Virus record (IMG/VR): IMGVR_UViG_3300045993_000887
Span: 1 to 52,092 of that record
Strand: one strand, 5' to 3'
Length of the DNA stretch: 52,092 bases
Source of the DNA: a virus
Position 1 is the stretch's first letter. Each line of letters begins with the position of its first letter. The translations under genes and the position numbers were made by a program. The notes under the pieces are model-generated. The model was not told where the DNA came from. It worked only from the letters and a program-made list of their open reading frames with translations, and did no database searches. Below, in pieces: positions 160 to 52,092 of the stretch.

Positions 160-617
160 TTAGCTTTTTTATGTTTTGCGTGCCACTTTTTAAAAAGCTT
201 CTTGTATTTCTCTTTATTTTTTAGGTAATACTCTCTAAAGTATTCTCTGCATTTCTCCTTATTTTTCAAGTAATATTTTTTAGATTTTTCTTTAGAACGC
301 TCTCTGCATTTCTCCTTATTTTCTAAGTAATATTTTTTAGAACGCTCCGCCCCCGTCATGGCTGGTTTCTTGCCTAAGAGGGATTGATCAGGGGCGGGTG
401 CGTTTTCCCTGCTTTTAGCTTTTTTTCTTTTAAAATACTCTTTGCCCTCATCAGTTTTATCCCAACATGCTCGGCATAAAGGGGCATGGGCGGAGTCTGT
501 CCGCAATTTTTTAGAGCAGTTTGCACATACACAGCGATTCTTGTGTGCCGTCCGTTGCAAATAATAATCTCGCTGATAAATTTGCATTACTAATTTTTGT
601 TCAGGGGGTTTAGTCAT
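153..617 (-). CDS. Zinc-ribbon protein with Lys-rich tandem-repeat tail, function unknown
   Basis: 154 aa. Cys pairs CVCANCS...CRACW. Three tandem YYL(E/K)NKEK units are encoded by a 57-bp direct repeat (CTCTGC at 245 and 302). Start overlaps the dam stop. Last gene of leftward unit A. Confidence 0.6.
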   Translation of the reverse strand: MTKPPEQKLVMQIYQRDYYLQRTAHKNRCVCANCSKKLRTDSAHAPLCRACWDKTDEGKEYFKRKKAKSRENAPAPDQSLLGKKPAMTGAERSKKYYLENKEKCRERSKEKSKKYYLKNKEKCREYFREYYLKNKEKYKKLFKKWHAKHKKAKE

Positions 618-16379: not shown

Positions 16380-16653
16380 CCTCCCAATCACGAAGCACTT
16401 CAACCCTAAAATCATGCAATTGAGTATTAAATTGCCCTTTCCTAAATGAAGAAATTTTAGAAATATCTAAATCTTCTTTTGCAAATTCTGGAAAGTTTTC
16501 AGCGCACCAATCGCAAATCTTCATTGCATCAGCAAAAATTTCTGTGTCCGTCTTTGGCAATCGAAATCCGTTGTCATGAACAACGTTGTAAAAAAATATA
16601 AGCTCAGGCAGAAGAATAGTGCCTTGTGTTGTCTGCACTTGGATTGTAATCAT
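16357..16653 (-). CDS. Hypothetical protein
   Basis: 98-aa ORF in the leftward replication operon with an acidic C-terminus (WEDDDDFPF). Confidence 0.55.
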   Translation of the reverse strand: MITIQVQTTQGTILLPELIFFYNVVHDNGFRLPKTDTEIFADAMKICDWCAENFPEFAKEDLDISKISSFRKGQFNTQLHDFRVEVLRDWEDDDDFPF

Positions 16654-22903: not shown

Positions 22904-23080
22904 CTATTTTCCCACTCTGCTTATATCAATCCGACCCATGCAATAGCGAAAAAATACTGGCGACATTGGACGGTTCATGTCTGCGATCGCAAACTGTTCA
23001 GCAATTTTTTCATCGCTTACGCAATCCCAATATTTTTTCCCTAAAGAACGAAAAAATCTATCAAATCTGTGACTGTCCAT
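22904..23080 (-). CDS. Small hypothetical protein (58 aa)
   Basis: GGAGG lies 5 nt upstream of the ATG. The stop of the upstream ORF abuts the start. MDSHRFDRFFRSLGKKYWDC... Confidence 0.45.
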   Translation of the reverse strand: MDSHRFDRFFRSLGKKYWDCVSDEKIAEQFAIADMNRPMSPVFFRYCMGRIDISRVGK

Positions 23081-23251
23081 TTATGCCTCCCTCAGCATCT
23101 TCAAATTAAATGATTCCGTCCGACCATCAAGAATAAAAGTGACAATTGCTACGTTTAAACGAATGTCGGTAATTTTACCTGCGCCATAGCAAGAGCTATG
23201 GATACCAATACTGCGAACGCGATCGCCTATTTTAAATTCGTGATTAGCCAT
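23081..23251 (-). CDS. Small hypothetical protein (56 aa)
   Basis: MANHEFKIGDRVRSIGIHSS... TAATG junction with 23251..23451 and TAA-ATG junction with 22904..23080. Confidence 0.45.
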   Translation of the reverse strand: MANHEFKIGDRVRSIGIHSSCYGAGKITDIRLNVAIVTFILDGRTESFNLKMLREA

Positions 23252-23451
23252 TAACTGTCACCTTTGCAAGGTGCTAAAGGTATATTCAAAATTGCATCAT
23301 ACATTTCATAGGCTTCGATAATTCTATGGAGAGTTACCGCATCACTCCCCTCATCAGAGCGCCTTAATCGTCTTAAAGCCTCTATATCAGACAATTGCAT
23401 CCTAATATTTTGATGCTTGCCTGTAGTGTATTTTTTAGTCTCGACAGCCAT
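23251..23451 (-). CDS. Hypothetical protein, first gene of the leftward replication operon
   Basis: 66-aa ORF with TAGGAG upstream of the ATG. Confidence 0.55.
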   Translation of the reverse strand: MAVETKKYTTGKHQNIRMQLSDIEALRRLRRSDEGSDAVTLHRIIEAYEMYDAILNIPLAPCKGDS

Positions 23452-23521
23452 AAATTAGACTCCTATATATCTGTAAATCACAATAACATACATCATACCA
23501 AAAAGAAATATTTTTAAAATG

Positions 23522-23552
23522 TTGACAAAATAACACCGTGTCATGTTATAGT
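23522..23552 (+). promoter_or_regulatory. Candidate promoter of the rightward early operon
   Basis: TTGACA (23522-23527), 19-nt spacer, extended -10 TGT-TATAGT (23544-23552). AGGAG and ATG 23583 follow. Confidence 0.4.
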
Positions 23553-23582
23553 GTTTACACGAGAAAAAAGGAGCGCAAAGCA

Positions 23583-24374
23583 ATGATTTTTCAAATTGGC
23601 ATGACATACGCAACGCACACAGTCACTCACCGCACGGCTTGCTTTGCAACTTTTGACGGGACGACTAGAAAGAAGATCACTATTAACAAAGATGGCATTG
23701 AGCAAGTAACCTTGGGCGGTGAAATTATCACCCCTTACACCCCTCCAGTCGAGACTGAATCCGCCGAAGTGACAGCCCCTGACACACGTACTTGGATTGA
23801 GCCAAGCCCTAACCGTATTGACAATCCCACACCAGTTGGCGGCGGTAATGATAGCGAAGATATTATCGTAATCGACAGCACTAATCAGCAATGGCTATTA
23901 GTCAGTACTGACACGCAGACGGTACTTTTTGAGGCTGTAGAGCATCGTGAATGTGGATACGAGCCACGTACTCGCACAATGCCACTATCAGAAGTGCAAG
24001 CGCTCTACGGATGGGGTAAGCAGAAAGGCGCTGATGACTCAAAAACTTTTAATATCGGTCAAACCTACGATGCAGATGGGCTACAGATTACAGTCACATC
24101 TCGCACAGGCGACACAATTAAATTTGAAGGTAAATTTACCAGCTTTATTCGACACACATCGGTTGATGATAATGGCGAATTTGTTTTACTAGGGACTGAT
24201 AGATCTTCAAAAATCTATGCTGTGGATACCCCAAAATGGTTTCATGGTGATGACATTGATATTGAGCTAGAGCGTGAGCGGATGGCACGTATGTGGGATC
24301 GGGATAGCGATCGCGCTGCTAATTTCGAGATGTCAGCTAGGCATGGATGCGGAGCGGTGTTGCAATGGAACTAG
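23583..24374 (+). CDS. Hypothetical protein with internal domain duplication
   Basis: The ORF track starts at GTG 23538, but ATG 23583 has AAGGAG upstream. FQIGMTYATHTVTHRT... recurs as FNIGQTYDADGLQITVTSRT... Confidence 0.6.
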   Translation: MIFQIGMTYATHTVTHRTACFATFDGTTRKKITINKDGIEQVTLGGEIITPYTPPVETESAEVTAPDTRTWIEPSPNRIDNPTPVGGGNDSEDIIVIDSTNQQWLLVSTDTQTVLFEAVEHRECGYEPRTRTMPLSEVQALYGWGKQKGADDSKTFNIGQTYDADGLQITVTSRTGDTIKFEGKFTSFIRHTSVDDNGEFVLLGTDRSSKIYAVDTPKWFHGDDIDIELERERMARMWDRDSDRAANFEMSARHGCGAVLQWN

Positions 24375-24568
24375 CAGATTGGCAAAAAAAACTAATCGCT
24401 AACAATCTTGATAGCGATTCTATTAAAAAATATCGTTCAGAAATTTGTAGAAATCACGGATTTAAATCCGTTGCTGATATACCCGTAGATATGGCTGATG
24501 ATTTGATTTGTATTATTGAATCGTATGTAGAAATAATGACTGATTTTAGCGTCGCCACAAGTTGCTAA
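24365..24568 (+). CDS. Hypothetical protein
   Basis: The ORF track starts at 24347. ATG 24365 (MELADWQKK) overlaps the upstream stop. Confidence 0.5.
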   Translation: MELADWQKKLIANNLDSDSIKKYRSEICRNHGFKSVADIPVDMADDLICIIESYVEIMTDFSVATSC

Positions 24569-24651
24569 TCAATACTGCTGCTAGTGTTGATGAAGATTCC
24601 GATTCAGTTGATGACCATGACGACATTTATACTTTTGGAAGGTAAGAAACC

Positions 24652-24918
24652 ATGAACAATAAAGAATTGCAAAACCTGACAATCGAACTTGTAAAAGCGA
24701 CTGCTGCTTTTGATGAGGCGCAAAGATTAGCTGCTATTGAAAAGCAAAAAGTTGAAAGCATCGTCGAGAAAATCTCTAAAAATAACCAGTACTCTAAAGA
24801 GCCTGACGCATTTATTAATTGTGGCAACTTGGGCTTATATCATCTCAAATTCCATAAGGAAACAGGTGCATTAGTTGCTACGCATTTGGTTAAAACTGCT
24901 GTGCTAGATTTACCTTAA
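24652..24918 (+). CDS. Hypothetical protein
   Basis: 88-aa ORF with GGAAGG upstream. Confidence 0.55.
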   Translation: MNNKELQNLTIELVKATAAFDEAQRLAAIEKQKVESIVEKISKNNQYSKEPDAFINCGNLGLYHLKFHKETGALVATHLVKTAVLDLP

Positions 24919-25016
24919 GCCAATATTTTTGAGCAGCTAGCGCCGCCCCTACTGCATTAGTGTAGGTTGCTTGCATAGTGTAAAAAATTACTAACTTTGC
25001 ATAACTTTGAACAATT

Positions 25017-25853
25017 ATGGCTATTGATTTTTCTCAATTTGAATCTGATGAATTCACAGGCGTTGCTACAAGCCGCCCCCATTGCCAAGTAATGAATGAT
25101 GCTGGTGACCAAGGGCTGTTCATTTCTCAAGAGATTGCAGATCGTGTGGAATTAAAAACCGAGAAGCTAAAACCACACGTTTTTAAGACTAAGCAAGGCG
25201 ACAAGATTAATGGCTTTCTGTTTCAGTCGCCTCGTCTTTTAATTATCCATGTTGGTGACTTGATTTGCACTCATCCTGATACAAAACCCGATGGCTCTAA
25301 AAATCCTTTAGCAGGGCAAAAGACGCATTGGAAGAATGAATATAAAGGCGATCGCGAGATTAAAAAGACGACAAAATATCTTGTTTTCTTTTTGGATTCT
25401 AAAAATGAATTTTTGCATTCAGAACCAATTCAACTCAATGCTGGCGGAGTGTTCTCAACTTCTTTTGCTAAAGCCTATAAGTCTTTTAAGGAGCAATTTC
25501 AGAAGCAATGGACGGATTTAAGTAAGGATCGCAAGCCTAAAAACCAAGGCTTTTTCTGTCATGCTGTGTTTGCTTTTAATACTACCCATGAATTGCACGG
25601 CAGTGGGAAAGATGTCAATCAATGCTGCATCGTCAAAGATTTTGCTGCTCCTACTGAGGCAAATATTAGCGATGGAACTCTGTTTTTGGGTGGCGATAAT
25701 ATCAAGCGTGCTTTGATTCGTGAAGTGTTTGTTGCTAATGAAGGCTATGGCACGCTTGCCTATGAACTTGATCGTAGCAACCAATCCAAACAGCAAGAAA
25801 CCGCCCCTAACAATGGCAGTGACAATGATGGCAATGATGATGATGAATTCTAA
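25017..25853 (+). CDS. Hypothetical protein with SSB-like acidic C-terminal tip
   Basis: 278 aa ending NGSDNDGNDDDEF. Lies in the early/replication region. Confidence 0.6.
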   Translation: MAIDFSQFESDEFTGVATSRPHCQVMNDAGDQGLFISQEIADRVELKTEKLKPHVFKTKQGDKINGFLFQSPRLLIIHVGDLICTHPDTKPDGSKNPLAGQKTHWKNEYKGDREIKKTTKYLVFFLDSKNEFLHSEPIQLNAGGVFSTSFAKAYKSFKEQFQKQWTDLSKDRKPKNQGFFCHAVFAFNTTHELHGSGKDVNQCCIVKDFAAPTEANISDGTLFLGGDNIKRALIREVFVANEGYGTLAYELDRSNQSKQQETAPNNGSDNDGNDDDEF

Positions 25854-25865
25854 CTAACTCTCACA

Positions 25866-25883
25866 CCGCCCTAATTAGGGCGG
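25866..25883 (+). terminator. Short GC hairpin after 25017..25853
   Basis: CCGCCCT-AATT-AGGGCGG. There is no T-run, so it could be an attenuator or processing site rather than a terminator. Confidence 0.3.
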
Positions 25884-25891
25884 GTAAAACT

Positions 25892-26095
25892 ATGACTCAA
25901 AAGCAATTATGGGATAAATTTCTTGAAGTTGAGCAACAAATCTTTAGGCTCAAATTCATCATCCAAAATCCACTCACGCCCGACTATCCAATCTTGCCTG
26001 ATTATCTTAAAATATGGCGCGAAGATTGCGATCGCGCTCAGAAAGAGTTAGCTGAAATCATTCAAAAAATCGATAAATTTGTAGAGGGAAAATAG
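25892..26095 (+). CDS. Hypothetical protein
   Basis: 67-aa ORF in a tightly packed operon. Confidence 0.5.
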   Translation: MTQKQLWDKFLEVEQQIFRLKFIIQNPLTPDYPILPDYLKIWREDCDRAQKELAEIIQKIDKFVEGK

Positions 26096-26098
26096 CAA

Positions 26099-26383
26099 AT
26101 GTACCTATACGTCAAAGTTTTGATTGACGAGCAGCCTATTAAATTTGCTTCATTTGTCACAGGTGTTTCTATTGCAAAAGACGGCTCAATTACTTACACA
26201 TTGGCTCCAACTACTGTTTTTACTGAATCAGACGAAATTAGCCTTTTGTCGGTTGAATCTGATAAAAACAATATAAACGTTAATGTTTGGTTTCACAATA
26301 AAACTGAAGATTTTTACTTTGGTTCTAGAGCAGTAGAAGTGTGGACTGATTCTGGCATTGTCGGAAAATTAGCAGAAATATAA
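26099..26383 (+). CDS. Hypothetical protein
   Basis: 94-aa ORF, 3 nt after the previous stop. Confidence 0.55.
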   Translation: MYLYVKVLIDEQPIKFASFVTGVSIAKDGSITYTLAPTTVFTESDEISLLSVESDKNNINVNVWFHNKTEDFYFGSRAVEVWTDSGIVGKLAEI

Positions 26384-26386
26384 TCT

Positions 26387-26584
26387 ATGCAACAAATAAT
26401 ATTTATCGCTCTTACTGCAATTATTCTTGCTCTAATCTTAAAAGAGATTGGCTACACAGTAAGAGCGATGCGATATCACCAATTCCAAGCCAAAAAGTTA
26501 AATATCCCCTTTGATATTTACGCGATGGAATTTGAGGCTGAGACTAAAAAATATTTGTATATGGATAAAAAATACAATGGCTAA
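26387..26584 (+). CDS. Small membrane protein
   Basis: 65 aa with an N-terminal hydrophobic helix IIFIALTAIILALIL. Confidence 0.5.
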   Translation: MQQIIFIALTAIILALILKEIGYTVRAMRYHQFQAKKLNIPFDIYAMEFEAETKKYLYMDKKYNG

Positions 26585-27170
26585 AAAGCGCCGCTTAACC
26601 CTTATCAAATTTGATAAGGAAGGGATTATTACCAAGTTTGGCTATCTTGACCACAACTCGCATAAAATCACTACTTCTAGCATCATTTTTAATGGCGATT
26701 CATTAGCCAGTGCAACTAATATCTTTTTGCGCGGCTTGCTTGAGAGACATTACCCATTTGGTGAAGTTGACACTTTTGCGGTTGAGGAGATCACAATTGA
26801 TTATGATTACGATGATGTCAAAAAGTTGACATTTTCGCTCAAATTTGATGGCGAACATTGTGGCGAAATGACGCAACCATTCAAGTCTCTGCCACACCAA
26901 ATCTTGAATAAAGATAATTCAGATTTGATTAATAATTTATCTGATTTAGCTTTGGGCATTTGGGATGAGTTTATGGACTCTTTGCCTAAGCAGCAATCGC
27001 TAGACTTGTTCCCATTACCTGATTTAGAAGCATATCAACACATAGCTGAGAATACAGGAAAGCCAAGCGCATACGATTCCCCTGAAGAGTATCAGCGCAA
27101 AATGGAAGAGGTATATCACGAAAAATCAAGAAAGAAACAGAATGGGTTTGTCGGCGCGATAGTCGCTTAA
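26577..27170 (+). CDS. Hypothetical protein
   Basis: The ORF track starts at 26511. ATG 26577 (MAKKRRL) overlaps the upstream stop by 8 nt. Confidence 0.55.
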   Translation: MAKKRRLTLIKFDKEGIITKFGYLDHNSHKITTSSIIFNGDSLASATNIFLRGLLERHYPFGEVDTFAVEEITIDYDYDDVKKLTFSLKFDGEHCGEMTQPFKSLPHQILNKDNSDLINNLSDLALGIWDEFMDSLPKQQSLDLFPLPDLEAYQHIAENTGKPSAYDSPEEYQRKMEEVYHEKSRKKQNGFVGAIVA

Positions 27171-27177
27171 ACTCATT

Positions 27178-27220
27178 AAAAAAATGACCTATTCAAAAAG
27201 TTTGAGTAGGTCATTTTTTT
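27178..27220. terminator. Bidirectional terminator between convergent genes
   Basis: A7, TGACCTATTCAAA, AAG loop, TTTGAGTAGGTCA, T7. This gives 13 bp with one G-U pair, flanked by complementary A and T runs. Confidence 0.7.
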
Positions 27221-27419
27221 ATGGCAACTTTTTCTTCATCTCGCTAACTTCTTGCTCTAAGTTGGCAACGCGACTCGTAATTGAGTGCGCTACATATTTA
27301 GCCTCGCAAGTTTCTACCACTACCTCACTAAAACTTATATTCCTAGCGTCTGCACATTTTTGGATCGCTACCAATAGATCCGGGGGGAATCGGATCGTTT
27401 TGCCTATGCTCTCAGCCAT
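27219..27419 (-). CDS. Ribbon-helix-helix (CopG/Arc-like) regulator
   Basis: 66 aa. KTIRFPPDLLVAIQKCADARNISFSEVVVE is an RHH-type N-terminus. Divergent from the HTH gene at 27515. Confidence 0.55.
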   Translation of the reverse strand: MAESIGKTIRFPPDLLVAIQKCADARNISFSEVVVETCEAKYVAHSITSRVANLEQEVSEMKKKLP

Positions 27420-27454
27420 ACATACCTGTAATCAAAAATAATTACGAGTATAGC

Positions 27455-27483
27455 TTGACTTTGTTAATTACATAGTGTAATTT
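27455..27483 (+). promoter_or_regulatory. Candidate promoter with overlapping palindromic operator
   Basis: TTGACT (27455-27460), 17 nt, TAATTT (27478-27483). The palindrome AATTACA-TAG-TGTAATT (27466-27482) lies inside it. More TGTAAT(C) copies at about 27427 and 27487. Tandem ATGGTTTCCA x2 at 27505-27524. Confidence 0.4.
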
Positions 27484-27514
27484 ATTTGTAATCAGATATT
27501 TCCGATGGTTTCCA

Positions 27515-27814
27515 ATGGTTTCCACAGAAGAGAACAGAAATGACCAGAAAAGGTACTGGTTGGAGGCGGTAATAACCAATGATTTAGCACTAACTACCAA
27601 CCAGATCGCGACAGCCTTGGAAGTCACCCCCCGTACTATTACAGGATGGAGAAACAAGGCAGAAAAAGCAAAAGTGCCAACTGGCATATATGAGAAGGGT
27701 TGGATTTTCCCTCCCGATCATTTAATCGATTTACTGCTATTCGTAGCAAAGACAATTAACCGCCACTCCTATAAATGGGTAAAAGAATGTCGCAAGAAAC
27801 TGAAACAGAATTAA
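27515..27814 (+). CDS. Helix-turn-helix DNA-binding protein
   Basis: 99 aa. LTTNQIATALEVTPRTITGWR is a classic HTH segment. Confidence 0.6.
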   Translation: MVSTEENRNDQKRYWLEAVITNDLALTTNQIATALEVTPRTITGWRNKAEKAKVPTGIYEKGWIFPPDHLIDLLLFVAKTINRHSYKWVKECRKKLKQN

Positions 27815-28131
27815 GAGGCAGCGCCACAAAGAATGGTCAACAAACTCAATCCTCTGAACCTGACAAGATTATTATTCGTGATGCATCGCAAATTCAAGCA
27901 GCAACACGAACTGAATTAGAATCACTTTCTAGCTATGTGGCTGATCAGTTAAATGAAGCTGTTGTTACAAGATCGGCTGAGAAACTAGCATTGCACGCTG
28001 TTCAAAATTCAGATCGAATTGTTACTAAGGCGATCGGGCATTTACAAAGTTTTTTGCCGAAGATCCTCGAACCCAATCCTTTGATGTTCGAAAACGAGCT
28101 AGAAATACTTATGGGCAGCGAGGCGGCGTAA
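27787..28131 (+). CDS. Hypothetical protein
   Basis: The ORF track starts at 27775. ATG 27787 (MSQETETE) overlaps the HTH gene end. Confidence 0.5.
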   Translation: MSQETETELRGSATKNGQQTQSSEPDKIIIRDASQIQAATRTELESLSSYVADQLNEAVVTRSAEKLALHAVQNSDRIVTKAIGHLQSFLPKILEPNPLMFENELEILMGSEAA

Positions 28132-28136
28132 ACACC

Positions 28137-28871
28137 ATGTATGAGATCGCTACTGACACCGATTACGCCGATCGCCCGATCGCAGATGAGTTTGCTGCAC
28201 AACCAAATACATCAGCACCGATCGCTCATGTCCCTACAGAGCAATTTGCGATCCCTCAGAGAGATATGTCGTGGTTGACATGGCGCGTTGCGATCGGCGG
28301 TATCGGTGCGGTAGTAATGGGAGCGCTCCTATTTGTTGCATCTCGCGGCGCGGGAAACACTCAAACCATGACAGTGCATCCCCCTGAGCAAGAGCCTGTG
28401 AATATGGAAAAGGTGAACGAAGATATTATCAAAAACAATTATGCTAAGTTCTCTGAATTGAAACAGGTAACTGATGTCAAGATGGACGAGATAGAGCAAG
28501 CCTCTATCAATGAGAGGGCGCAAGAGATTCTAATAGAAGCTAAAAGACACGTTAGTGATCCTGCCAATAAAAATGGTTGCTATCGCGCTTTTAACGGAAA
28601 AGACTGCTATGCACTTATCTTTGCTGCTGAACAAAAACAGAGATGGCTAGATGCGATTTCTGTTGGACAAAAGAAAAAGGCTAATGAGGCTTTATTCGAC
28701 TTCAAAGCAGCAAGGGTTGCTCTTGATGGGATAAACCCCAATCTCCCATTCAATCCTCCAGTGGCTTTTGGCGCGATGAGCAATGAAATTGATGCGAGAG
28801 CAAAAATCGAAGATCAATCTCAAGCCGCGATCGCAACTGACTTGTATCAGGGAGTTAGAAAGAAAAAGTGA
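28137..28871 (+). CDS. Single-pass membrane protein
   Basis: 244 aa with a hydrophobic helix WRVAIGGIGAVVMGALLFVAS. Its stop overlaps the next start. Confidence 0.6.
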   Translation: MYEIATDTDYADRPIADEFAAQPNTSAPIAHVPTEQFAIPQRDMSWLTWRVAIGGIGAVVMGALLFVASRGAGNTQTMTVHPPEQEPVNMEKVNEDIIKNNYAKFSELKQVTDVKMDEIEQASINERAQEILIEAKRHVSDPANKNGCYRAFNGKDCYALIFAAEQKQRWLDAISVGQKKKANEALFDFKAARVALDGINPNLPFNPPVAFGAMSNEIDARAKIEDQSQAAIATDLYQGVRKKK

Positions 28872-30037
28872 GAGCAATAGAATATGGAATTAGCTTTGTG
28901 CTTCTCGCGTCCGCCGCCTTTTATTCGGCAATGCCTAAGCAATATATTGACGGACTGCGTACAAAAGAAGAAATGGAGGCTTTTCAAAAAATAACCCTCG
29001 TAGACAGGCAAAAGTTTAAAACCGTATCACAGAGCTATAACAATGATGGGATCACGGCTGCATTAAGTCTAGGTGCTTCTTACTTTCTGATCCGATGGGT
29101 GATGTCCCTCGACAATAAGCCAATCATTCAGAAGCCAGTGCAACCTTCTGTTAGTCAGCCTCAAGCAAAGCAAACTGTGGTTTTTAATAATAATAATCGG
29201 GTTGAGGTAAAAGTGCGACAGGACAGAACTCAGCAGCCTAGACCTTCTAGAAGTGTTGACGATTCAGAGCGAATGGATAGTACGGGTGCTTGGATACTCA
29301 AGATGATGTTTGGTAGTGATGGCTTAAAACGCCAGCATTACAAGATTGAAGGGGTTTCTCAGTCTGGAAAAACTACTTTTGTTGAATACCTACTGTCTTT
29401 GATATCTGATGAAGATCCTACTACCGAAAAACTGCTAATCGATCCCAAATATCGCAAAGCAAAACCTAACTGGTCATTTTTACCTTATTGTGCTGATATT
29501 GCTAAAGTTCCAAAAGCACTTATAGACTTTGTTTCTGAAGTCGAAGAAAGACAGCAATCAGAGACTGATTTTGCAGATCAATTCCCCAAAATATTTGTCA
29601 TTGATGAGTGGGATTGGATTTTCACAGATCATGGTAAAGACGCTCTTAGAAATCTTCGTAAATTAATCAAGGTTGGTGCTGAGTTAAGGTGCTATGTCGT
29701 GTTATTAGGTCAATCGCCATTAGCAAAAGATACAGGGCTATCTACTTCTGATTTCGATCAGATGGTTAGAATCTCTATCGGCAAAGTAGCAATGAAAGTT
29801 CTTAATAATCCTGCTCATTTTGCTTTTAGTAATCGTGATGAATTACTAGTTAAAGCTGAGCAGCTATACACGTCAGGTCAGCGTTTTGCACTCATCCAAG
29901 AGCATGGTGTTGCCCCTCGCCTTGAAATTATTCCCAAAATTGTTAAGCCAAATCAATCGATCCCTGATGATATTGACTTAGAAGAAGATGAAATCCCCAA
30001 CGACAAAGTTATTCCAATTAATAGGAGGGCAGTATAA
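28868..30037 (+). CDS. Membrane-anchored FtsK/SpoIIIE-like P-loop ATPase
   Basis: 389 aa. Two N-terminal hydrophobic helices, then a Gln/Pro-rich linker. Walker A GVSQSGKTTF, Walker B IFVIDEWDW, then ELRCYVVLLGQSP...MVRISIG, which parallels the FtsK R-x-G-I-hhh-ATQRP...RI pattern. Confidence 0.55.
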   Translation: MRAIEYGISFVLLASAAFYSAMPKQYIDGLRTKEEMEAFQKITLVDRQKFKTVSQSYNNDGITAALSLGASYFLIRWVMSLDNKPIIQKPVQPSVSQPQAKQTVVFNNNNRVEVKVRQDRTQQPRPSRSVDDSERMDSTGAWILKMMFGSDGLKRQHYKIEGVSQSGKTTFVEYLLSLISDEDPTTEKLLIDPKYRKAKPNWSFLPYCADIAKVPKALIDFVSEVEERQQSETDFADQFPKIFVIDEWDWIFTDHGKDALRNLRKLIKVGAELRCYVVLLGQSPLAKDTGLSTSDFDQMVRISIGKVAMKVLNNPAHFAFSNRDELLVKAEQLYTSGQRFALIQEHGVAPRLEIIPKIVKPNQSIPDDIDLEEDEIPNDKVIPINRRAV

Positions 30038-30477
30038 TGTCAAATTTAGCTCGTAGAGACGGCGGCGGCGTGATCGATTACAACGGTGATGGCAGCCCTG
30101 ATGCTTATGTGCATGAGATTGTTACACAACGGGTATCGGCAACGATTAACCCTAAAGAAGATGGCGCTGTAGGCAAAATCCTGATGATGGCGATCGCCAC
30201 AGTAATAAGCCGTCCCATCAATAGCTTTAAAGAGTTTTGGGGATGGACTTCACTAGGGCTTGCTGTTTTTTATCTAATTATCGCGTGGTTTAGCAGTAAG
30301 CCTGTTATTCCAGAAACCCGTAATTTTGCTGACAACCTCCGCCCTGATGTCGTTGGCGCTGCATTTGGACGTACTGGGAGAGCGATAACAACATCTTTTG
30401 CTGATTCTGCTAATGCTTCAGAAGTTACCTCTACAAGCACATCTCTTACTCGTCAAACTAAAGTGAGAGTCGATTAA
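30037..30477 (+). CDS. Membrane protein
   Basis: 146 aa. Hydrophobic helices ILMMAIATVI and LGLAVFYLIIAWF. ATGA-type coupling with the ATPase gene. Confidence 0.6.
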   Translation: MSNLARRDGGGVIDYNGDGSPDAYVHEIVTQRVSATINPKEDGAVGKILMMAIATVISRPINSFKEFWGWTSLGLAVFYLIIAWFSSKPVIPETRNFADNLRPDVVGAAFGRTGRAITTSFADSANASEVTSTSTSLTRQTKVRVD

Positions 30478-30644
30478 TGGCTAAACCTACCCCATATATG
30501 TATCGCCTTGAAACAGACGGTACATATACACCCCTAACCAAAGCTCAGTACGAATTTGAAGCAGCTAATCTCTATACTAAGGGTTCCGCTTATCGCGATC
30601 GCGTTGAACAATTAATTAAGAAAGTGAATAGTCATGACCACTAA
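30477..30644 (+). CDS. Small hypothetical protein (55 aa, below the ORF-track cutoff)
   Basis: MAKPTPYMYRLETDGTYTPL... TAATG junction at 30475-30479. Overlaps the next gene by 11 nt. Confidence 0.4.
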   Translation: MAKPTPYMYRLETDGTYTPLTKAQYEFEAANLYTKGSAYRDRVEQLIKKVNSHDH

Positions 30645-30924
30645 AAGAGAATCCCTCGGTATCAACGATTCAATTATCATTACAACCCCGATCGGCAAAA
30701 TTGTTGTTTTAATTAATGCCGATGGCATTGAAGTTGATTTATCAAAGCCTGAAGCTTTGATTTCTGTCAAGATTGATGGCACAGATGTATCTTCAGATGT
30801 GCGTAATCATGGTGGGCGCAGCAGAAATCAACAAGTCCAAATCATCAATGATCGCGTCAACGGCGGTCAAATCGCACAATCCAACGGCGATATAATCCAA
30901 TTCCAAAGCAATCGGTATCGTTAA
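30634..30924 (+). CDS. Hypothetical protein
   Basis: 96-aa ORF in the same operon. Confidence 0.5.
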   Translation: MTTKRESLGINDSIIITTPIGKIVVLINADGIEVDLSKPEALISVKIDGTDVSSDVRNHGGRSRNQQVQIINDRVNGGQIAQSNGDIIQFQSNRYR

Positions 30925-30926
30925 TC

Positions 30927-31406
30927 ATGCGTAAATCAGCGATCGCCACATCAGCAATATTAACATTATCTTTTGTGGCGCTTCTAGCTGATGTCACGCA
31001 GCAGGGCTACATGAGGTTCACGAGTGTTTCCGATATCAAAAAAACACTCCCAAATATTACCCCTCCCCAGTTTGCAAAAGTTTTGGAAGGTAATGACAAA
31101 GGCTGTCTCACAAAAACATCTCAAACAAAAGCTGTCACTGTTACTCAGCTTAGGACTTTAAGACAATTAACCGATCCTGACGCGATCGTCGCGTTGCTAG
31201 GTAATCCACTATGTCAAACAGAAAAAGGGGCTACATGGATTACTGAATCAGGTAAAAGATTAAATCTAAATTTTAATAAAGTATTGGATTATGACTTTAG
31301 CACAGACACCCCGCAATCGCTCACCAACAAAGAGCGCACACCCGCAAAAACAAATGGAAGCGCTGATAGAAGTTTGCAGCGTGGAGTATCGCCATCAAGT
31401 CCTTAG
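30927..31406 (+). CDS. Secreted or membrane-anchored protein
   Basis: 159 aa with an N-terminal signal/anchor MRKSAIATSAILTLSFVALLA. Confidence 0.55.
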   Translation: MRKSAIATSAILTLSFVALLADVTQQGYMRFTSVSDIKKTLPNITPPQFAKVLEGNDKGCLTKTSQTKAVTVTQLRTLRQLTDPDAIVALLGNPLCQTEKGATWITESGKRLNLNFNKVLDYDFSTDTPQSLTNKERTPAKTNGSADRSLQRGVSPSSP

Positions 31407-32478
31407 CAAAAAGGAACAGGAGCTAAGGACTAATAATTTTATTAGGCTTGCGCTCTCTGGTTTTTTGCTTTCTTTTGTGGTAATTCAACCTCTTAATAGT
31501 TTTTTAGAGTGGGGATGGCGATTAGCCAAAGCTCCAACTTTTGATTCTAACGGCATGGAAGTAAACTTTAAAGAACTCAATGTAGACAAGGGCTTTAATC
31601 GCACACTCAAAGAAGGTGATGCTGTATTAGCTTATAAAGTTACTTCAGTCTTTGGTGAACGGATCCACCCTGTTACTGGTGTAAAAAAAATGCATAACGG
31701 CGTTGATCTTGATACTCCTAAAGGTACGGATATTTACGCGATCGGTAAGCCTCGGAACTGGGGTGCTGGTGAGATATTTGGAAGTGAAACTATTTATATC
31801 GAGTGCAGTGATGATTCTGAAGGCGGCAAGATTGCAAGTGTGACAAGTTCATTTATGAAAGACTATAGATTCAATTTTATGCATCTAGAATCTTGTAATT
31901 CAGGAGCTTATGCAAGCGGCGCAATCGTTGCTACTACGGGTAATAGCGGCGGCTCTACTACAGGTGAGCATCTGCATTTTGAAGTAGAGTTAAAAGGGCG
32001 AAAAATTGATCCTCCTGTTGGGTTTTTGCTTTGGGCTTTGCAAGGCAAGGAACCCCAGTTACAGTCATCTACAAAGCCAATAGTCGAGAAGTTGCGTAAT
32101 GCAATTGCAGGTCAAGAATCAGGGCATGACAGCAAGATTGTTAACACTGATTCGGGCGCACTTGGTTTAGCTCAAGTTATGCCAGAAAACATCAAGGAAT
32201 GGTCAACTCAATGTCTTGGTAAGCCACTTGCCGAAAAAGAATTTCTTGCCTCAAAAGAGAAGCAAATCAAGGTTATTGATTGCAAGCTTGCCGAGTATTT
32301 AGGGCAAACACGGAACGCCCCTGATTTTGATACTCAGGTCAGGCAAGTTGCATCAATCTGGTATTCAGGGGATGCAACCCTTTATAACAATACAAAGCCT
32401 CAAAAATTTGGAAATGGTAGCTATCCATCCATTAACGATTATTCACTTTCAACTCTAGCGAGATTTAAAAAACAATGA
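31354..32478 (+). CDS. Membrane-anchored bifunctional cell-wall hydrolase: M23 peptidase plus lytic transglycosylase (SLT)
   Basis: Anchor helix FIRLALSGFLLSFVVI. M23 motifs HNGVDL and GEHLHFEV. SLT motifs AGQESGHDS and LGLAQVMP. The start is uncertain (the ORF track gives 31291; ATG 31354 and GTG at about 31381 are alternatives). Confidence 0.8.
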   Translation: MEALIEVCSVEYRHQVLSKKEQELRTNNFIRLALSGFLLSFVVIQPLNSFLEWGWRLAKAPTFDSNGMEVNFKELNVDKGFNRTLKEGDAVLAYKVTSVFGERIHPVTGVKKMHNGVDLDTPKGTDIYAIGKPRNWGAGEIFGSETIYIECSDDSEGGKIASVTSSFMKDYRFNFMHLESCNSGAYASGAIVATTGNSGGSTTGEHLHFEVELKGRKIDPPVGFLLWALQGKEPQLQSSTKPIVEKLRNAIAGQESGHDSKIVNTDSGALGLAQVMPENIKEWSTQCLGKPLAEKEFLASKEKQIKVIDCKLAEYLGQTRNAPDFDTQVRQVASIWYSGDATLYNNTKPQKFGNGSYPSINDYSLSTLARFKKQ

Positions 32479-32663
32479 CATTATCAAACCAAATTACGCC
32501 ACAGATACGCTACGAAATTCTTGCACTTTTGAAGCAAATTCCAAACCCAAAAAGGGTTAAACTTGCACCTACTTTTGACCCAAATTATAAATATTATTTA
32601 CTGGAAGATGGCACTTATCGGATGGTAAAAAGAACATTCCTAAGCAGTGGCAAGTTCAATTAA
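32475..32663 (+). CDS. Hypothetical protein, last gene of the module
   Basis: 62-aa ORF with an ATGA junction to the hydrolase gene. Confidence 0.5.
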   Translation: MTLSNQITPQIRYEILALLKQIPNPKRVKLAPTFDPNYKYYLLEDGTYRMVKRTFLSSGKFN

Positions 32664-32666
32664 AAA

Positions 32667-32692
32667 GCCTGTAACTTTGCGGAGTTACAGGC
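32667..32692. terminator. Hairpin after the module (10-bp stem)
   Basis: GCCTGTAACT-TTGCGG-AGTTACAGGC. The A-run lies on the 5' side only. Confidence 0.4.
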
Positions 32693-32753
32693 GGGAATGT
32701 TTAGGGATATCTAGCATTTACAAAGTAAAGTCTAAATAAAGTATACCAATAAA

Positions 32754-32792
32754 AAAGCACATAATCTCTACTCGCTAAAGATTATGTGCTTT
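32754..32792. terminator. Bidirectional terminator between convergent operons
   Basis: AAAGCACATAATCT, 11-nt loop, AGATTATGTGCTTT, with A and T runs flanking. Confidence 0.65.
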
Positions 32793-32864
32793 TAGACATT
32801 CGCCTTGGATTGCTTGCTGCTATTATATTACCATCTCAACCCCCCATGCATAGTGATCACTTTT

Positions 32865-33116
32865 TTATGAAATCTTAGTCGAGTAAAATCCAATTTGAGA
32901 ATGCAGTGGGAAAGTTACTGTCACGCTTTCACCAATTAAAGCGTCTTTTGTGCCTTGATTATAAGCTTTTCTAATATCGCCATTAGCAAACTGTACTTGG
33001 TTATTGCCTAAATAAGTTGCGCTAGAAGTTTGCTGATTTTCATCTTGGAATAAACGATTATTTAAGCTGATTACGCTTTGTGAGAAAGCAGTTGATAAAA
33101 GATTTTTAATGCTCAT
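32865..33116 (-). CDS. Hypothetical virion protein, last gene of the leftward tail block
   Basis: 83-aa ORF. Confidence 0.5.
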   Translation of the reverse strand: MSIKNLLSTAFSQSVISLNNRLFQDENQQTSSATYLGNNQVQFANGDIRKAYNQGTKDALIGESVTVTFPLHSQIGFYSTKIS

Positions 33117-33121
33117 AGTTC

Positions 33122-33946
33122 TTATAAAAATTCGAGATATATATATCCATTAATATTTAATAATAGATCTCCATTCCCTCCTGTCGGATCTGAGGACTGG
33201 ACATTAATTAAAAAACCTTCAAACTGAGAATATGCATAATTTGTTTCCGTCATTATTTTGATATCATTAATTAACTCTTCACCGCTAGCTTGGAGAGATC
33301 CGTATTCAAAGCCTTCCCAGAATTTATAGGTAACAGGGCGGTAAGAATCGCCTTCACGCGCAACTTCTCCAATTGTACTATTAAGCTGAAAAGTAATATC
33401 TTTTAATGTCCCTGAAGATGAAGCCACAAAATCAATCCTATTGCTTGATTCTGAAAATGTAGAATTAAAATATGCAGTAGCACTATCTATGGGAGGCGCA
33501 AAAGTAAACGGTTCATTAGTTGAAACCTCATGATAAAAATCTACCTCTTGAGAATAATCTGATCCGCTATCGTTATAAGTCAGAGTAAAGCGCCCACTTA
33601 TCCATCTAATAGGCGGCAACGGTGGTAGTGGGGGTAATGGTGGTACAAATATAGGAGCAGGCAATACTGCTAATAGGGCGCTTTTGTTGTCAACCATTGA
33701 TAACCCGCCCCTAACAGGTATAGGACGCATTTCTTCACCTATGCCGTAATAGATATTAGGAACAATTAATGCTCTTGATTCGCATTGTCCTAATCGCTTA
33801 ACTTTGCCATTCTCACCCATGAAGGTTGGCAAGATTGCAGTCGATTCAAGCTTAATTTTTCTTGCCCGTGCGATCGCATCTTGAGACATATTTTGCTCAA
33901 GTTTGATTCGTACTTTGTCGGATGGTGTGAGATCAGGCATAGCCAA
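33122..33946 (-). CDS. Putative tail/baseplate protein with PPLPPLPPLPP linker
   Basis: 274 aa. The proline repeat is at residues 102-112 (nt 33611-33643). Overlaps the upstream gene. Confidence 0.5.
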   Translation of the reverse strand: MAMPDLTPSDKVRIKLEQNMSQDAIARARKIKLESTAILPTFMGENGKVKRLGQCESRALIVPNIYYGIGEEMRPIPVRGGLSMVDNKSALLAVLPAPIFVPPLPPLPPLPPIRWISGRFTLTYNDSGSDYSQEVDFYHEVSTNEPFTFAPPIDSATAYFNSTFSESSNRIDFVASSSGTLKDITFQLNSTIGEVAREGDSYRPVTYKFWEGFEYGSLQASGEELINDIKIMTETNYAYSQFEGFLINVQSSDPTGGNGDLLLNINGYIYLEFL

Positions 33947-36924: not shown

Positions 36925-37476
36925 ATGGGCTATATGGCAAAGGGTAAAGCTAAATTATCAGATTTTAAATGTCAAGCAAAAAACACTAATAAGCACAAGC
37001 CGCGTGGTATGGCAATGCTTGACAGTGTTATTGAAACTGACGGATGGCAAGGTGGGATAACTGTTGCTGCCAATGGTGAGACGTTCGCAGGTTCGGCACG
37101 CTTAGAGGTTGCAACTAATCGATTTGGTGAAGATGCTGAGCCGATCATGGTGCATACTACAGGTGATCGTCCTGTGATTATTGTGCGTGATGATATCCCA
37201 GATGCTAATCACCCAAAAGCAGTTAGGCTAGGCATTGCAGATAATCGGATAAGCGAAATTAACTATGATGCTGATTATGAGTTATTGACTGAGATATCGG
37301 ATGAAATTGATATTTCAGATATGTATGATGACGATGAGTTGATTGTGGATACAGATGAGAGCGAAACAGAAAACGTTCCATATAATCCTGAATCATCAGC
37401 TAAAGAAGTCAATGTAGATAATTTTGAGTTTGAATGCGAATGCCCCAAATGTGGGTTTCAATTTAATGGTAAATAG
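36925..37476 (+). CDS. ParB-like nuclease-domain protein with C-terminal zinc ribbon
   Basis: 183 aa. NTNKHKPRGMAMLDSVIETDGWQGGITV...GSARLEVA...RLGIADNR fits the ParB N-terminal domain pattern. ECECPKCG. ATG 36934 is an alternative start. Confidence 0.55.
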   Translation: MGYMAKGKAKLSDFKCQAKNTNKHKPRGMAMLDSVIETDGWQGGITVAANGETFAGSARLEVATNRFGEDAEPIMVHTTGDRPVIIVRDDIPDANHPKAVRLGIADNRISEINYDADYELLTEISDEIDISDMYDDDELIVDTDESETENVPYNPESSAKEVNVDNFEFECECPKCGFQFNGK

Positions 37477-38458
37477 CATCGCTTGGTATCTGAAAGATTT
37501 AAAATCCGTTACTCAAAACGGACTAAAAGTTATGACTACTTTTAGTTGCGGCGGCGGTAGTTCTATGGGGTATAAGTTAGCAGGGTGCGAGGTGATTGCA
37601 GCTAATGATATTGATCCTAAAATGGCATATCACTATAAATTAAATCTCAATTCTAAACATTATTTTCTATGTCCTATCAAAGATTTAATTGGCAAAAAAT
37701 TACCAGATGAACTTTACCAATTAGATATCCTAGACGGATCGCCGCCATGTTCAACTTTTTCTATGGCTGGCAGCCGCGAAAAAGCATGGGGCAAAAAGAA
37801 GCATTTTAGAGAAGGTCAAGCCGAACAAATTTTAGATGATTTATTTTTTGATTACCTTGATTTAGTTGAACATTTGCGCCCAAAAGTAGCGATCGCTGAA
37901 AATGTCAAAGGTTTGTTACAAGGCAATGCGAAAGGCTATTGCAAGTTGATTATTGAGAGGTTTAAGGCGATCGGCTATAAGCCTCAATTATTTCTGGTTA
38001 ACGCTGCTGATTGTGGCGTTCCACAAAAGCGAGAACGTGTATTTTTTGTGGCTTTGCGCGATGATATTGATAAGCCTAAATTGCTATTAGCTCCTAAGCA
38101 CAGATGGATTAGCGCGGGTGAGGCGATAGAAGATTTAGGGCATAAAGTTAAAGGATTATTTCTTGTTACGGCTGGCAATGAAAGGCATGTCAAAGCTTTT
38201 AGACTTCCTATACATGATCCTTATTCTCAACCCGCCCCAACATTGACAGCTACAGGTAATTCTTTTGATTTAATTTCTAAAGATCGCGAAACTGAAGAGA
38301 GGGCTTATACTTTTGCCGAATATAAACGCCTTGGTTCATTCCCTGATGACTACCAAGCGAAAACGGGTAAGATAGGCAAATATATGATAGGAATGAGCGT
38401 ACCGCCACGCATGACAGAACAGGTGGCTAAAGCTGTGATAGAGCAGTGGTTAAGTTAA
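37466..38458 (+). CDS. DNA cytosine-5 methyltransferase (2 of 2)
   Basis: Motifs TFSCGGGS (I), GSPPCSTFS (IV), ENVKGL (VI), QKRERVF (VIII), GMSVPP (X). The ORF track starts at 37424; ATG 37466 is more likely. Confidence 0.85.
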   Translation: MVNSIAWYLKDLKSVTQNGLKVMTTFSCGGGSSMGYKLAGCEVIAANDIDPKMAYHYKLNLNSKHYFLCPIKDLIGKKLPDELYQLDILDGSPPCSTFSMAGSREKAWGKKKHFREGQAEQILDDLFFDYLDLVEHLRPKVAIAENVKGLLQGNAKGYCKLIIERFKAIGYKPQLFLVNAADCGVPQKRERVFFVALRDDIDKPKLLLAPKHRWISAGEAIEDLGHKVKGLFLVTAGNERHVKAFRLPIHDPYSQPAPTLTATGNSFDLISKDRETEERAYTFAEYKRLGSFPDDYQAKTGKIGKYMIGMSVPPRMTEQVAKAVIEQWLS

Positions 38459-38878
38459 ATGGCACAAAAAAGCGACAATGCAGAAATAGAAAAGCGAGTA
38501 AATAAAGTTTATTCGCTTATTTTGCAATGTCATTCTACTGAAAAAATCGTAGCTTATGCTAGGCAAACGTGGGGCATAAACCGCGCTCAAACGACTAGAT
38601 ATATAAAAAGGGCGCGTGACCAAATGAAGGAGGTTTGCGCGATTGAGAGAGAAGAAGCTTATGCTGAAGAGATGGAATTAAGGCGTGAAATCATCCGTAA
38701 AGCACTTGATGAGAAGAAGTACCAAACAGCATTACAGGCAGCCGACAGCAGGGCAAAACTAAGGGGCTTATTTGATAAATTAGAGCAAGCGATCGATACG
38801 GTGACAGCACATGGTTACGAAGTGTCCGACCCCACTGAAATCACCGAAACACAAAGCGAAAATAGTACGCAGGAATAA
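38459..38878 (+). CDS. Probable terminase small subunit
   Basis: 139 aa. N-terminal HTH-like IVAYARQTWGINRAQTTRYIKRA, then a coiled coil. Lies immediately upstream of and overlapping terL. Confidence 0.45.
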   Translation: MAQKSDNAEIEKRVNKVYSLILQCHSTEKIVAYARQTWGINRAQTTRYIKRARDQMKEVCAIEREEAYAEEMELRREIIRKALDEKKYQTALQAADSRAKLRGLFDKLEQAIDTVTAHGYEVSDPTEITETQSENSTQE

Positions 38879-42703: not shown

Positions 42704-42852
42704 AAATTACAGACGCTCAATTAACAAAAATCACACAAATGATGGAATCAGAATCAGAAATTATTGATTGGATTGATTCTCAAAAAAATGCACAAGATAT
42801 TTATGACTGGTTTAACGAATTTATGCAGGGGTATGTGGTCAAAAAAGCATGA
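42700..42852 (+). CDS. Small hypothetical acidic protein (50 aa, below the ORF-track cutoff)
   Basis: MKITDAQLTKITQMMESESEIIDWIDSQKNAQDIYDWFNEFMQGYVVKKA. ATGA junctions at both ends. Confidence 0.45.
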   Translation: MKITDAQLTKITQMMESESEIIDWIDSQKNAQDIYDWFNEFMQGYVVKKA

Positions 42853-52052: not shown

Positions 52053-52092
52053 TTTTGTGTATCTGACGAGAATAAGCAACACAAAAGCACCC
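51966..52092. repeat. Terminal overlap: exact copy of 1..127
   Basis: See feature 1..127. Confidence 0.95.

Follow-up and report, generated by a model that had tools for sequence, protein, structure and literature searches.

Does a run of ten small phage genes, in which a membrane-anchored FtsK-like ATPase is encoded close to a membrane-anchored cell wall hydrolase, serve to lyse the host or to carry DNA across its envelope? The question is raised by positions 27515–32663 of the IMG/VR virus record IMGVR_UViG_3300045993_000887, whose 52,092 nucleotides are hereafter called the window; the genes are numbered g1 to g10 along the plus strand (Table 1). The initial annotation of this DNA saw in them the architecture of FtsK-type conjugative transfer and not that of a lysis cassette. 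The analysis described here leads to another assignment, in which the ten genes probably constitute a conserved envelope operon of a cyanobacterial phage lineage and an unusual lysis module rather than a conjugation machine. What appears to be new is that the cassette of a bifunctional, signal-anchored endolysin is joined to membrane ATPases from a branch of FtsK/HerA that is still uncharacterised.

An anchored hydrolase as the likely endolysin

All ten open reading frames (ORFs) were recovered on the plus strand at the places first assigned to them, and their description as co-oriented and mostly overlapping was borne out: the successive junctions from g1 to g10 measure -40, +5, -4, -1, -1, -11, +2, -53 and -4 nt, so that neighbours overlap or abut in eight of the nine pairs. 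Start and stop codons overlapping in this way imply that the genes are expressed together, and the block is one tightly packed operon. The window begins and ends with an exact 127-bp repeat (positions 1–127 equal 51966–52092), and because of this terminal overlap the contig is a closed genome, circular or circularly permuted, of ~51,965 bp, complete rather than a fragment. Every ORF of at least 90 aa was scanned with Pfam and/or PHROGs, and statements made below on gene families in the closed genome have this scope.

The product of g9 comprises an M23 endopeptidase domain (residues ~112–220) followed by an SLT-like lytic transglycosylase domain (~241–373), both above the Pfam gathering score (Peptidase_M23, 6e-9; SLT, 2e-5), with the catalytic residues H114, D118, H177, H206 and the pair E255-S256 invariant in 28 homologues, which substantiates the anchored M23 and SLT fusion read earlier from the sequence. 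The N-terminal 25 residues, ahead of the anchor helix, include four basic and three acidic side chains, from which we infer an N-in, C-out orientation that would place both catalytic domains in the periplasm. No second wall hydrolase was recognised among the scanned ORFs of the closed genome. Lysis of the host is obligatory for a tailed phage, and with g9 as the sole candidate enzyme in a complete genome this protein is likely to be the endolysin of the phage. Its M23 domain is 36% identical to ORF123 of the Planktothrix phage PaV-LD, and ORF123 together with ORF124 damages Escherichia coli and Synechocystis when expressed, an effect for which the transmembrane (TM) segments are required (PMC9096620). 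A hydrolase that has no competitor in the genome, and whose PaV-LD homologue is lytic when expressed, leads us to assign g5–g10 to lysis, contrary to the earlier exclusion of a lysis cassette.

The arrangement recalls the signal-arrest-release (SAR) endolysins, whose N-terminal helix serves both for export and as a tether, with no need of a holin; the toxicity of PaV-LD ORF123 likewise needs its helix. Known enzymes of the SAR type consist of a single muramidase domain behind a helix rich in Gly/Ala, whereas g9 combines two catalytic domains with a helix that is more hydrophobic.

A membrane ATPase of the FtsK/HerA superfamily

The GTG start of g4 is backed by an N-terminus that is conserved in homologues. 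The motifs reported for this protein are present: the Walker A motif GVSQSGKTT (G162, G167 and K168) and the Walker B motif FVIDEW(DW) (E247) hold residues that are invariant in 40 homologues, and the GQSP motif is retained in the family consensus. The AlphaFold model (mean pLDDT 80.6) shows a helix at residues 2–21, a small loop domain, a second helix at 60–82, a disordered Gln/Pro-rich linker at 87–135, a RecA-like core at 140–355 and a disordered stretch over the last 20 residues. Membrane helices were read throughout from Kyte-Doolittle peaks, and on this scale both N-terminal helices of g4 are weakly hydrophobic (1.40 and 1.31), although they are modelled at a pLDDT of ~90 and retained by homologues. 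Of the five products said to carry clear hydrophobic helices, g3, g5, g8 and g9 thus hold and the ATPase is the qualified case.

A Foldseek search of the PDB with this model returned EccC (2e-7, TM-score 0.52 on the target), HerA (9e-7), FtsK (2e-6) and TcpA (8e-6), all at a probability of 1.00, with EssC also ahead of RadA, and RadA and RecA ranking lower. The E-values of EccC, HerA, FtsK and TcpA span ~40-fold, a spread within which the fold search does not separate them. In the viral structure library the top matches were gp108 of the Aphanizomenon phage CL131, recognised by its length of 641 aa, and a Nodularia phage protein, followed by A32-type packaging ATPases and FtsK-like proteins. 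A profile built from the 40 homologues retrieved from the PDB the FtsK motor (5e-8, over positions 154–231 only) and then EccC and HerA, with EssC also present; the RecA rows that head this search are an artefact of concatenated chains, at ~8 bits per segment. In Pfam g4 reached 17.8 bits against FtsK_SpoIIIE (PF01580), under the gathering cut-off of 24, and AAA_22 was also sub-threshold; FtsK_SpoIIIE was matched by 11 of the 40 family members at E <= 0.01 (best 1.3e-6). By sequence profiles and a confident AlphaFold model, g4 is a member of the FtsK/HerA superfamily, as the initial annotation had proposed, and not a protein from outside that clade.

The protein is a short version of these motors. 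Its model contains neither an FtsK alpha or gamma domain nor a TraB-type winged helix, nor any DNA-binding domain; the folded cytoplasmic part is confined to residues 140–355, and Foldseek aligns ~245 columns against the ~390–400 modelled residues of FtsK motor chains. The family comprises 10,190 cluster representatives at E <= 1e-3 (1,032 at 1e-10) and has no dedicated Pfam entry; its distant members match DUF87, FtsK_SpoIIIE, TrwB and AAA_10 at a marginal level, and a few of them carry DNA-binding or nuclease domains. A packaging ATPase of the FtsK type, as in membrane-containing phages such as PRD1, was ruled out, as the phage has a terminase large subunit (TerL), which lies outside the block as previously noted. 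PADLOC called no defence system in the block, the weak P-loop match of the ATPase to mad8 (4.7e-6, residues 154–249) being accompanied by no other component.

Small proteins around the ATPase and the hydrolase

The single-pass protein g3 precedes the ATPase, and its stop codon overlaps the g4 start; a single-TM protein of the same size is found at this place in all loci designated type A. Residues C148 and C157 of g3 are invariant in 10 homologues, which suggests a disulfide, and the C-terminal domain, all-helical in a poor AlphaFold model (pLDDT 52.5), is probably periplasmic. Protein g8 probably consists of a periplasmic domain behind its signal/anchor helix; C60 (its first cysteine), C96 and an LDY.F motif are invariant in 11 homologues, and the gene sits just upstream of the hydrolase gene in the related loci with enough sequence. 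These cysteine-paired periplasmic domains in the partners of the ATPase suggest a membrane-spanning complex, beyond a tethered cytoplasmic motor.

The likeness of g5 to a holin lies in its size and position only, with no holin or other family matched, and all type A loci have a TM protein of 154–172 aa after the ATPase. Homologues of g2 occupy the same position in four related loci (L003, L006, L010 and L016), that of g6 was found in L003 only and none was found for g7 in the related loci; downstream of the hydrolase gene, small ORFs 31–34% identical to g10 occur in L018–L020, L023 and L025. Proteins g2, g3, g5 and g8 matched nothing in Pfam, PHROGs or NCBIfam, collections in which Spd proteins are poorly covered, and the g3 and g8 profiles retrieved no PDB sequence. 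In NCBIfam, M23 was the only family match in the block that passed its cut-off.

Host and conservation of the gene order

The host is very probably a cyanobacterium because of three features. The octamer GCGATCGC, the HIP1 palindrome that characterises many genomes of cyanobacteria, occurs 37 times in the whole window against 0.58 copies expected from shuffles (for example at 653, 5454, 28827, 30190, 30595 and 30939). TerL is closest, among cultured phages, to those of PaV-LD and CL131 (36–37% identity, E ~1e-80). A DUF5895 protein (Pfam 1e-25) has plasmid matches that are exclusively cyanobacterial among 72,556 plasmids (Nostoc, Chroococcidiopsis, Oscillatoria, Gloeothece and others), and in at least two Nostoc plasmids its gene shares the replicon with a homologue of the ATPase gene. 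Of the filamentous cyanobacterial host considered in the initial annotation, the cyanobacterial part is supported. The 185,579 species genomes searched contain no close relative of the window ATPase, which gives no support to a prophage or chromosomal origin; the block found no match in phage records by blastn, nor did the major capsid protein among phages by tblastn.

More than 15 diverged viral contigs rich in HIP1 share the gene order of the block, as does the lytic phage PaV-LD, and because this order recurs in so many diverged loci the arrangement is not due to chance. The succession of g2, g3, ATPase, g8 and g9 is preserved in close relatives (L003, L006, L011/L020 and L016), and L096 has the full gene order. 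In IMG/VR, a family ATPase (profile E from 6e-143 to 4e-18) lies 0.8–0.9 kb upstream in all eight loci that have a full-length anchored M23 and SLT protein (46–65% identical to g9) and enough upstream sequence. In three further loci (L017, L028 and L045) an anchored Walker A protein stands at the ATPase position and escapes the family profile in each case, the P-loop of L017 being a deviant one read by eye; L028 and L045 have M23 and SLT split into two anchored proteins. Most related loci, and CL131, are enriched in HIP1 (up to 37 per 10 kb), L009, L012, L014 and L028 being without it. The initial annotation foresaw less novelty should the block be common in ordinary lytic cyanophages, and common it is, in a cyanophage lineage that includes PaV-LD; its occurrence in related phages was thereby confirmed, but Nostoc plasmids have the ATPase without the hydrolase. 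The ATPase of L016 (6073–7167) is 28% identical to that of the window against 41–85% for the flanking genes (g1 85%, the best conserved gene of the block, g8 67% and g9 51%), apparently through exchange of its gene or through an evolution much faster than that of the genes around it.

ParA-type ATPase genes were also seen near the module, in L096 (7187–8261, minus strand, paired with an McdB-like, carboxysome-positioning gene) and in L017 (9813–10415), a hint that some relatives are kept as episomes or manipulate carboxysome positioning.

The closest described counterpart is ORF122–ORF128 of PaV-LD. Order and topology are as in the window: the single-TM ORF128 is followed by the two-TM ATPase ORF127 (annotated FtsK/SpoIIIE; 24% identical to g4, against 36% for TerL), three small TM proteins (among them ORF124, annotated 'holin'), the anchored M23 endopeptidase ORF123 and the anchored GH108 protein ORF122. 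The difference is that peptidase and glycosidase are separate proteins in PaV-LD and that the glycosidase is a GH108 enzyme rather than an SLT. Within this group only ORF123 and ORF124 have been studied, as a lysis pair to which the ATPase was not linked (PMC9096620), and our literature search found no report tying an FtsK-like gene of a cyanophage to lysis or spread.

Putative control elements of the operon

A bidirectional terminator-like hairpin closes both the upstream plus-strand genes and a minus-strand gene for a 66-aa regulator, probably a ribbon-helix-helix protein, which is divergent from the operon and 74% identical at the same position in L016. Divergent small regulator genes lie upstream of the module in L003 and L016; the L010 flank stops inside the ATPase gene. 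Between regulator and operon, TTGAC and the TAGTGTAATTT half of an imperfect palindrome are kept in L016, though not the left palindrome arm, and a consensus promoter scan called no promoter at 27455–27483. The product of g1 matches phrog_7950 'transcriptional repressor' at 2.8e-4. The operon appears to have its own repressor-controlled promoter. The double terminator described downstream does not stand: in the first hairpin the T-run is confined to the minus strand, and the second, which is bidirectional, is the only one with a plus-strand T-run. Convergent tail-fibre-like genes adjoin the operon end.

Possible coupling of the ATPase to lysis

The explanation that we tentatively favour, as a whole, is a lysis cassette combined with a lysis-coupled membrane ATPase complex. 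The cassette would be g5–g10: g9 would insert in the cytoplasmic membrane with its N-terminus inside and its catalytic domains toward the wall, its M23 domain would cut peptide cross-links and its SLT domain glycan strands, and g5, a small membrane protein, and g8, exported and disulfide-containing, would assist or restrain it. The products of g2–g4 would form a membrane complex around the FtsK/HerA-type ATPase, presumably ring-forming, tethered by its two helices and flexible linker and translationally coupled to the single-pass g3, whose helical domain would extend into the periplasm. Such a complex might use ATP to control or drive the breakdown of the wall, setting its time or its place. 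In function it comes nearest to FtsEX acting with EnvC, PcsB or CwlO, where the ATPase of a membrane complex governs a periplasmic hydrolase (often LytM/M23) through helical or coiled-coil domains; FtsE is, however, an ABC ATPase unrelated to FtsK/HerA, and serves as a functional model without homology. The coupling is proposed because ATPase and lysis genes are co-translated and their synteny has lasted over deep divergence; that the ATPase acts in the same process as g9 is plausible, if short of probable.

Several points weigh against this explanation. Synteny alone is weak evidence of coupling, because phage gene order is generally conserved and TerL shows these phages to be related. We know of no lysis system with such an ATPase. 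No holin or spanin was recognised in the block by homology and no lipoprotein signal by inspection, a lipobox cysteine following no signal helix of the ten block products. The -35-like element and the local repressor would be more in keeping with genes expressed early or under regulation than with the late lysis promoter of classical phages. Homology between the window and PaV-LD is demonstrable for the ATPase and the M23 domain only, not for the accessory proteins (the g3 and g8 families showed none to ORF128 and ORF126 in hhalign), and the PaV-LD lysis data come from over-expression rather than from phage genetics (PMC9096620). Finally, homologous ATPases without a nearby hydrolase are found in CL131, in the Leptolyngbya phage Lbo402-yong5, in L009, L013, L014 and L095 and on Nostoc megaplasmids, where they sit among replication and recombination genes; these loci imply that the ATPase has a function not needing g9.

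In this second group, CL131 gp108 (L001, 6347–8272) has 641 aa and a weak C-terminal PD-(D/E)XK match (PDDEXK_9, 1.5e-4, below threshold) that would tie its ATPase branch to DNA, and the Lbo402-yong5 homologue is annotated 'DNA translocase coupling protein'. The ATPases of L013 and L095 lie among genes for DNA polymerase III beta, RecT, helicase and methyltransferase, and in L009 and L014 an HTH gene and a DUF2637 membrane protein, whose link to Spd is not established, precede the ATPase homologue. Fifteen Nostoc and Halotia megaplasmids carry the gene; the Nostoc protein (513–515 aa) shows ~93% identity across many species, is often multi-copy (L004, L005, L097–L154) and is 48% identical to CL131 gp108. 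In L004 and L005 it belongs to a long operon of small unknown genes, with an ERF recombinase in L005, and partition genes lie ~9–11 kb away. In CL131, Nostoc, Lbo402 and L013 the ATPase is preceded by a ~150-aa soluble helical protein, a family to which L095 adds a fifth member, and by a ~90-aa protein of two to four helices; upstream of this pair stands a single-pass protein, with the exception of CL131. No type IV secretion genes are annotated in ~70 kb of the Nostoc plasmid pNPUN02 (1640–72000, mostly upstream of the ATPase operon).

Such loci lend weight to an alternative in which two unrelated neighbours meet in the operon. Here g5–g10 would be a lysis cassette of the ordinary kind, its endolysin signal-anchored, and g2–g4 a separate membrane-tethered DNA pump acting on phage DNA only, which would pull in the genome after partial injection, anchor or sort replicating DNA, or expel superinfecting DNA; its adjacency to the lysis genes would be inherited gene order. 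The ATPase fold matches the DNA pumps FtsK, TcpA and HerA and the A32-type packaging ATPases, and the hydrolase-less homologues among DNA polymerase III beta, helicase, RecT, ERF and methyltransferase genes, the nuclease-like match of gp108, the DNA-binding or nuclease domains of a few distant members and the similarity of the Nostoc and CL131 proteins all agree with a pump, as does the divergence of the L016 ATPase from its flanks, which would mark it as an exchangeable unit. Set against this are the overlap and co-transcription of the ATPase genes with the hydrolase gene, an order that persists where the ATPase is beyond profile detection, the cysteine-bearing periplasmic domains of its partners, unneeded by a purely cytoplasmic DNA motor, and the absence of a DNA-binding domain from the window ATPase. 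This alternative is somewhat less likely than the coupled complex.

Conjugation-like transfer and other readings

The device suggested by the initial annotation would have the FtsK-like ATPase pump phage or plasmid DNA through a channel of small membrane proteins while the anchored hydrolase opens the septal wall, so that DNA passes between filament cells as with TraB and Spd in Streptomyces mycelium; a hydrolase-less Nostoc version would move plasmid DNA along the filament. Its architecture does resemble such a system, with a two-TM FtsK-like ATPase, an anchored bifunctional hydrolase, small membrane proteins and a local repressor. All four cultured phages with a homologue or top structural match infect filamentous hosts (Planktothrix, Aphanizomenon, Leptolyngbya and Nodularia, the last by structure only), no other match was found in a 50,697-record collection that includes phages of unicellular cyanobacteria (Microcystis), and a close homologue is multi-copy on the Nostoc megaplasmids. 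This host bias is, however, confounded by phylogeny, given the shared TerL, and the plasmid and CL131 versions lack the hydrolase. That neighbouring Anabaena cells lyse asynchronously under phage A-1(L) (10.64898/2026.02.14.705889) also speaks against it, with weak relevance.

Comparison with the described transfer systems, whose likeness to the block is confined to the list of parts, accentuates the differences. In Streptomyces (pSVH1), also a multicellular host, an FtsK-like membrane ATPase lies beside small membrane proteins, a local repressor controls the genes and the machine touches the wall (PMC4447253); this precedent favours the transfer reading. The Streptomyces system is, on the other hand, without a wall hydrolase, resides on a plasmid and moves plasmid DNA. 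The C-terminal winged helix of TraB reads clt repeats, whereas the window ATPase ends after its RecA-like core and no clt-like array of short repeats was found in 23000–33200. No similarity of the block proteins to Spd or Tcp proteins was detected in Pfam. Gram-positive type IV secretion systems (T4SSs) also pair an FtsK-like coupling ATPase with an N-terminally anchored peptidase and glycosidase hydrolase, as in pCW3 with TcpA and TcpG and in pCF10 with PrgK and its LytM, SLT and CHAP domains, and TcpA has two N-terminal helices as g4 does. The T4SS feature present in the window is g9, the membrane-anchored wall hydrolase encoded in the operon. These systems depend on a VirB4 ATPase, on a relaxase and on proteins like VirB6 and VirB8, whereas among the scanned ORFs of the closed genome no VirB4-type ATPase, no relaxase family, no polytopic VirB6-like protein and no VirB8-like protein was found. 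With g9 probably required as the endolysin, there being no other recognised enzyme to lyse the cell, the claim of a conjugative architecture finds no support and the transfer reading is improbable.

More improbable still is a small type VII-like export system, in which an EccC-like ATPase with single-pass partners would export g2, g8 or the hydrolase. The best Foldseek match to EccC, the presence of EccC and EssC in the profile search, the two N-terminal helices of the ATPase, the single-pass membrane proteins and the small soluble helical protein are in its favour. The window protein has, however, one ATPase domain rather than the three or four of EccC/EssC, the EccC match is inseparable by fold from those of HerA, FtsK and TcpA, no WXG100 substrate was matched in Pfam and g2 has no W-x-G motif, and g8 and g9 have signal or anchor helices of their own and need no special exporter.

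The last alternative makes the hydrolase and membrane proteins virion-borne entry proteins, packaged, ejected and then breaching the wall to form an inner-membrane channel. The SLT-like domain of g9 also occurs without M23 and is most similar to the C-termini of 860–1200-aa proteins in ~50 viral contigs (L029–L084), many of ~40 kb, and to a Thermus phage 'tape-measure protein with lysozyme'; the tape measure protein of the window has no lysin domain, and the operon end adjoins the tail-fibre-like genes. Such separate occurrence of the domain is ordinary domain shuffling among phage lysins. The large SLT-ended proteins probably belong to another group of phages, as lysins associated with the virion. 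Entry proteins are very improbable, since an ejection set would hardly include a Walker ATPase and transcription regulators, the head and tail genes form clusters to which the operon does not belong, the CL131 paper puts structural genes in an ORF012–059 cluster away from ORF108, and the phage would have no endolysin left.

Other features of the genome

Besides TerL, the genome encodes a major head protein, a Mu F-like head protein, a tape measure protein, a VapE-type primase, helicases and three DNA methyltransferases; no integrase was matched among the scanned ORFs and the genome has no tRNA genes. Its head genes stand in an unusual order, a trait that the CL131 paper also remarks on for CL131: the Mu-type portal match directly follows the tape measure gene and is thereby remote from TerL and the capsid gene, and the place expected for a portal, upstream of the capsid genes, is occupied by a 491-aa ORF without family match. 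Of the methyltransferases, one is an N6-adenine enzyme of the D12 class and one a C5-cytosine enzyme; the gene of the third adjoins a ParB-like gene. HIP1 contains GATC and CGATCG, and it is a speculation that the methyltransferases shield the many HIP1 sites from host restriction.

Table 1. Positions of the operon genes, control elements and other features in the window
Feature	Position	Strand	Description
Methyltransferase gene	614–1438	-	DNA methyltransferase
Portal match	8874–10154		Mu-type portal, 1e-23
Methyltransferase gene	15468–16415	-	DNA methyltransferase
DUF5895 gene	25017–25853		DUF5895 protein
Upstream hairpin	27177–27221		Terminator-like, bidirectional; 21-nt arms, 95% complementary; A-run before, T-run after
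Regulator gene	27219–27419	-	66-aa small regulator; NCBIfam YlcI_YnfO_N 4e-5, below cut-off
Promoter/operator-like region	27455–27483	+	TTGACT, -35-like (27455–27460); imperfect palindrome AATTACA-N3-TGTAATT (27466–27482)
g1	27515–27814	+	99-aa helix-turn-helix protein, first operon gene; HTH_17 0.01, sub-threshold
g2	27775–28131	+	118-aa soluble protein without hydrophobic segment; no family match
g3	28137–28871	+	244-aa single-pass membrane protein, TM 51–69 (peak 2.26)
g4	28868–30037	+	389-aa membrane-anchored P-loop ATPase
g5	30037–30477	+	146-aa small membrane protein; clear helix ~68–91 (peak 1.73 at 73–91), possible second at 44–62
g6	30477–30644	+	55-aa protein, poorly conserved
g7	30634–30924	+	96-aa protein, variable insert
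g8	30927–31406	+	159-aa protein, N-terminal signal/anchor helix 5–23 (peak 1.99); overlaps hydrolase gene
g9	31354–32478	+	374-aa type II anchored bifunctional murein hydrolase; anchor 29–47 (peak 1.84)
g10	32475–32663	+	62-aa protein, last operon gene, weakly conserved
Hairpin 1	32667–32692		T-run on minus strand only (terminator scan and sequence)
Hairpin 2	32753–32793		Bidirectional; A-run before, T-run after
ParB-like gene	36925–37476		Adjoins third methyltransferase gene
Methyltransferase gene	37424–38458	+	DNA methyltransferase
TerL	38811–40502		Terminase large subunit, outside the ten-gene block
491-aa ORF	42849–44324		No family match

Significance

The lysis genes of cyanophages, especially those of bloom-forming filamentous hosts, are poorly known, and the operon described here provides a recognisable lysis marker for one lineage. 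If the ATPase is tied to the endolysin, it would represent a new way to time or power lysis, a question that is directly testable in PaV-LD and CL131, both of which are in culture. Were it instead a DNA pump, it would define an uncharacterised FtsK/HerA branch common to cyanophages and Nostoc megaplasmids and would bear on the movement of DNA in multicellular cyanobacteria; a cell-to-cell translocon, if that were its nature, would do in cyanobacteria what TraB/Spd spreading does in Streptomyces.

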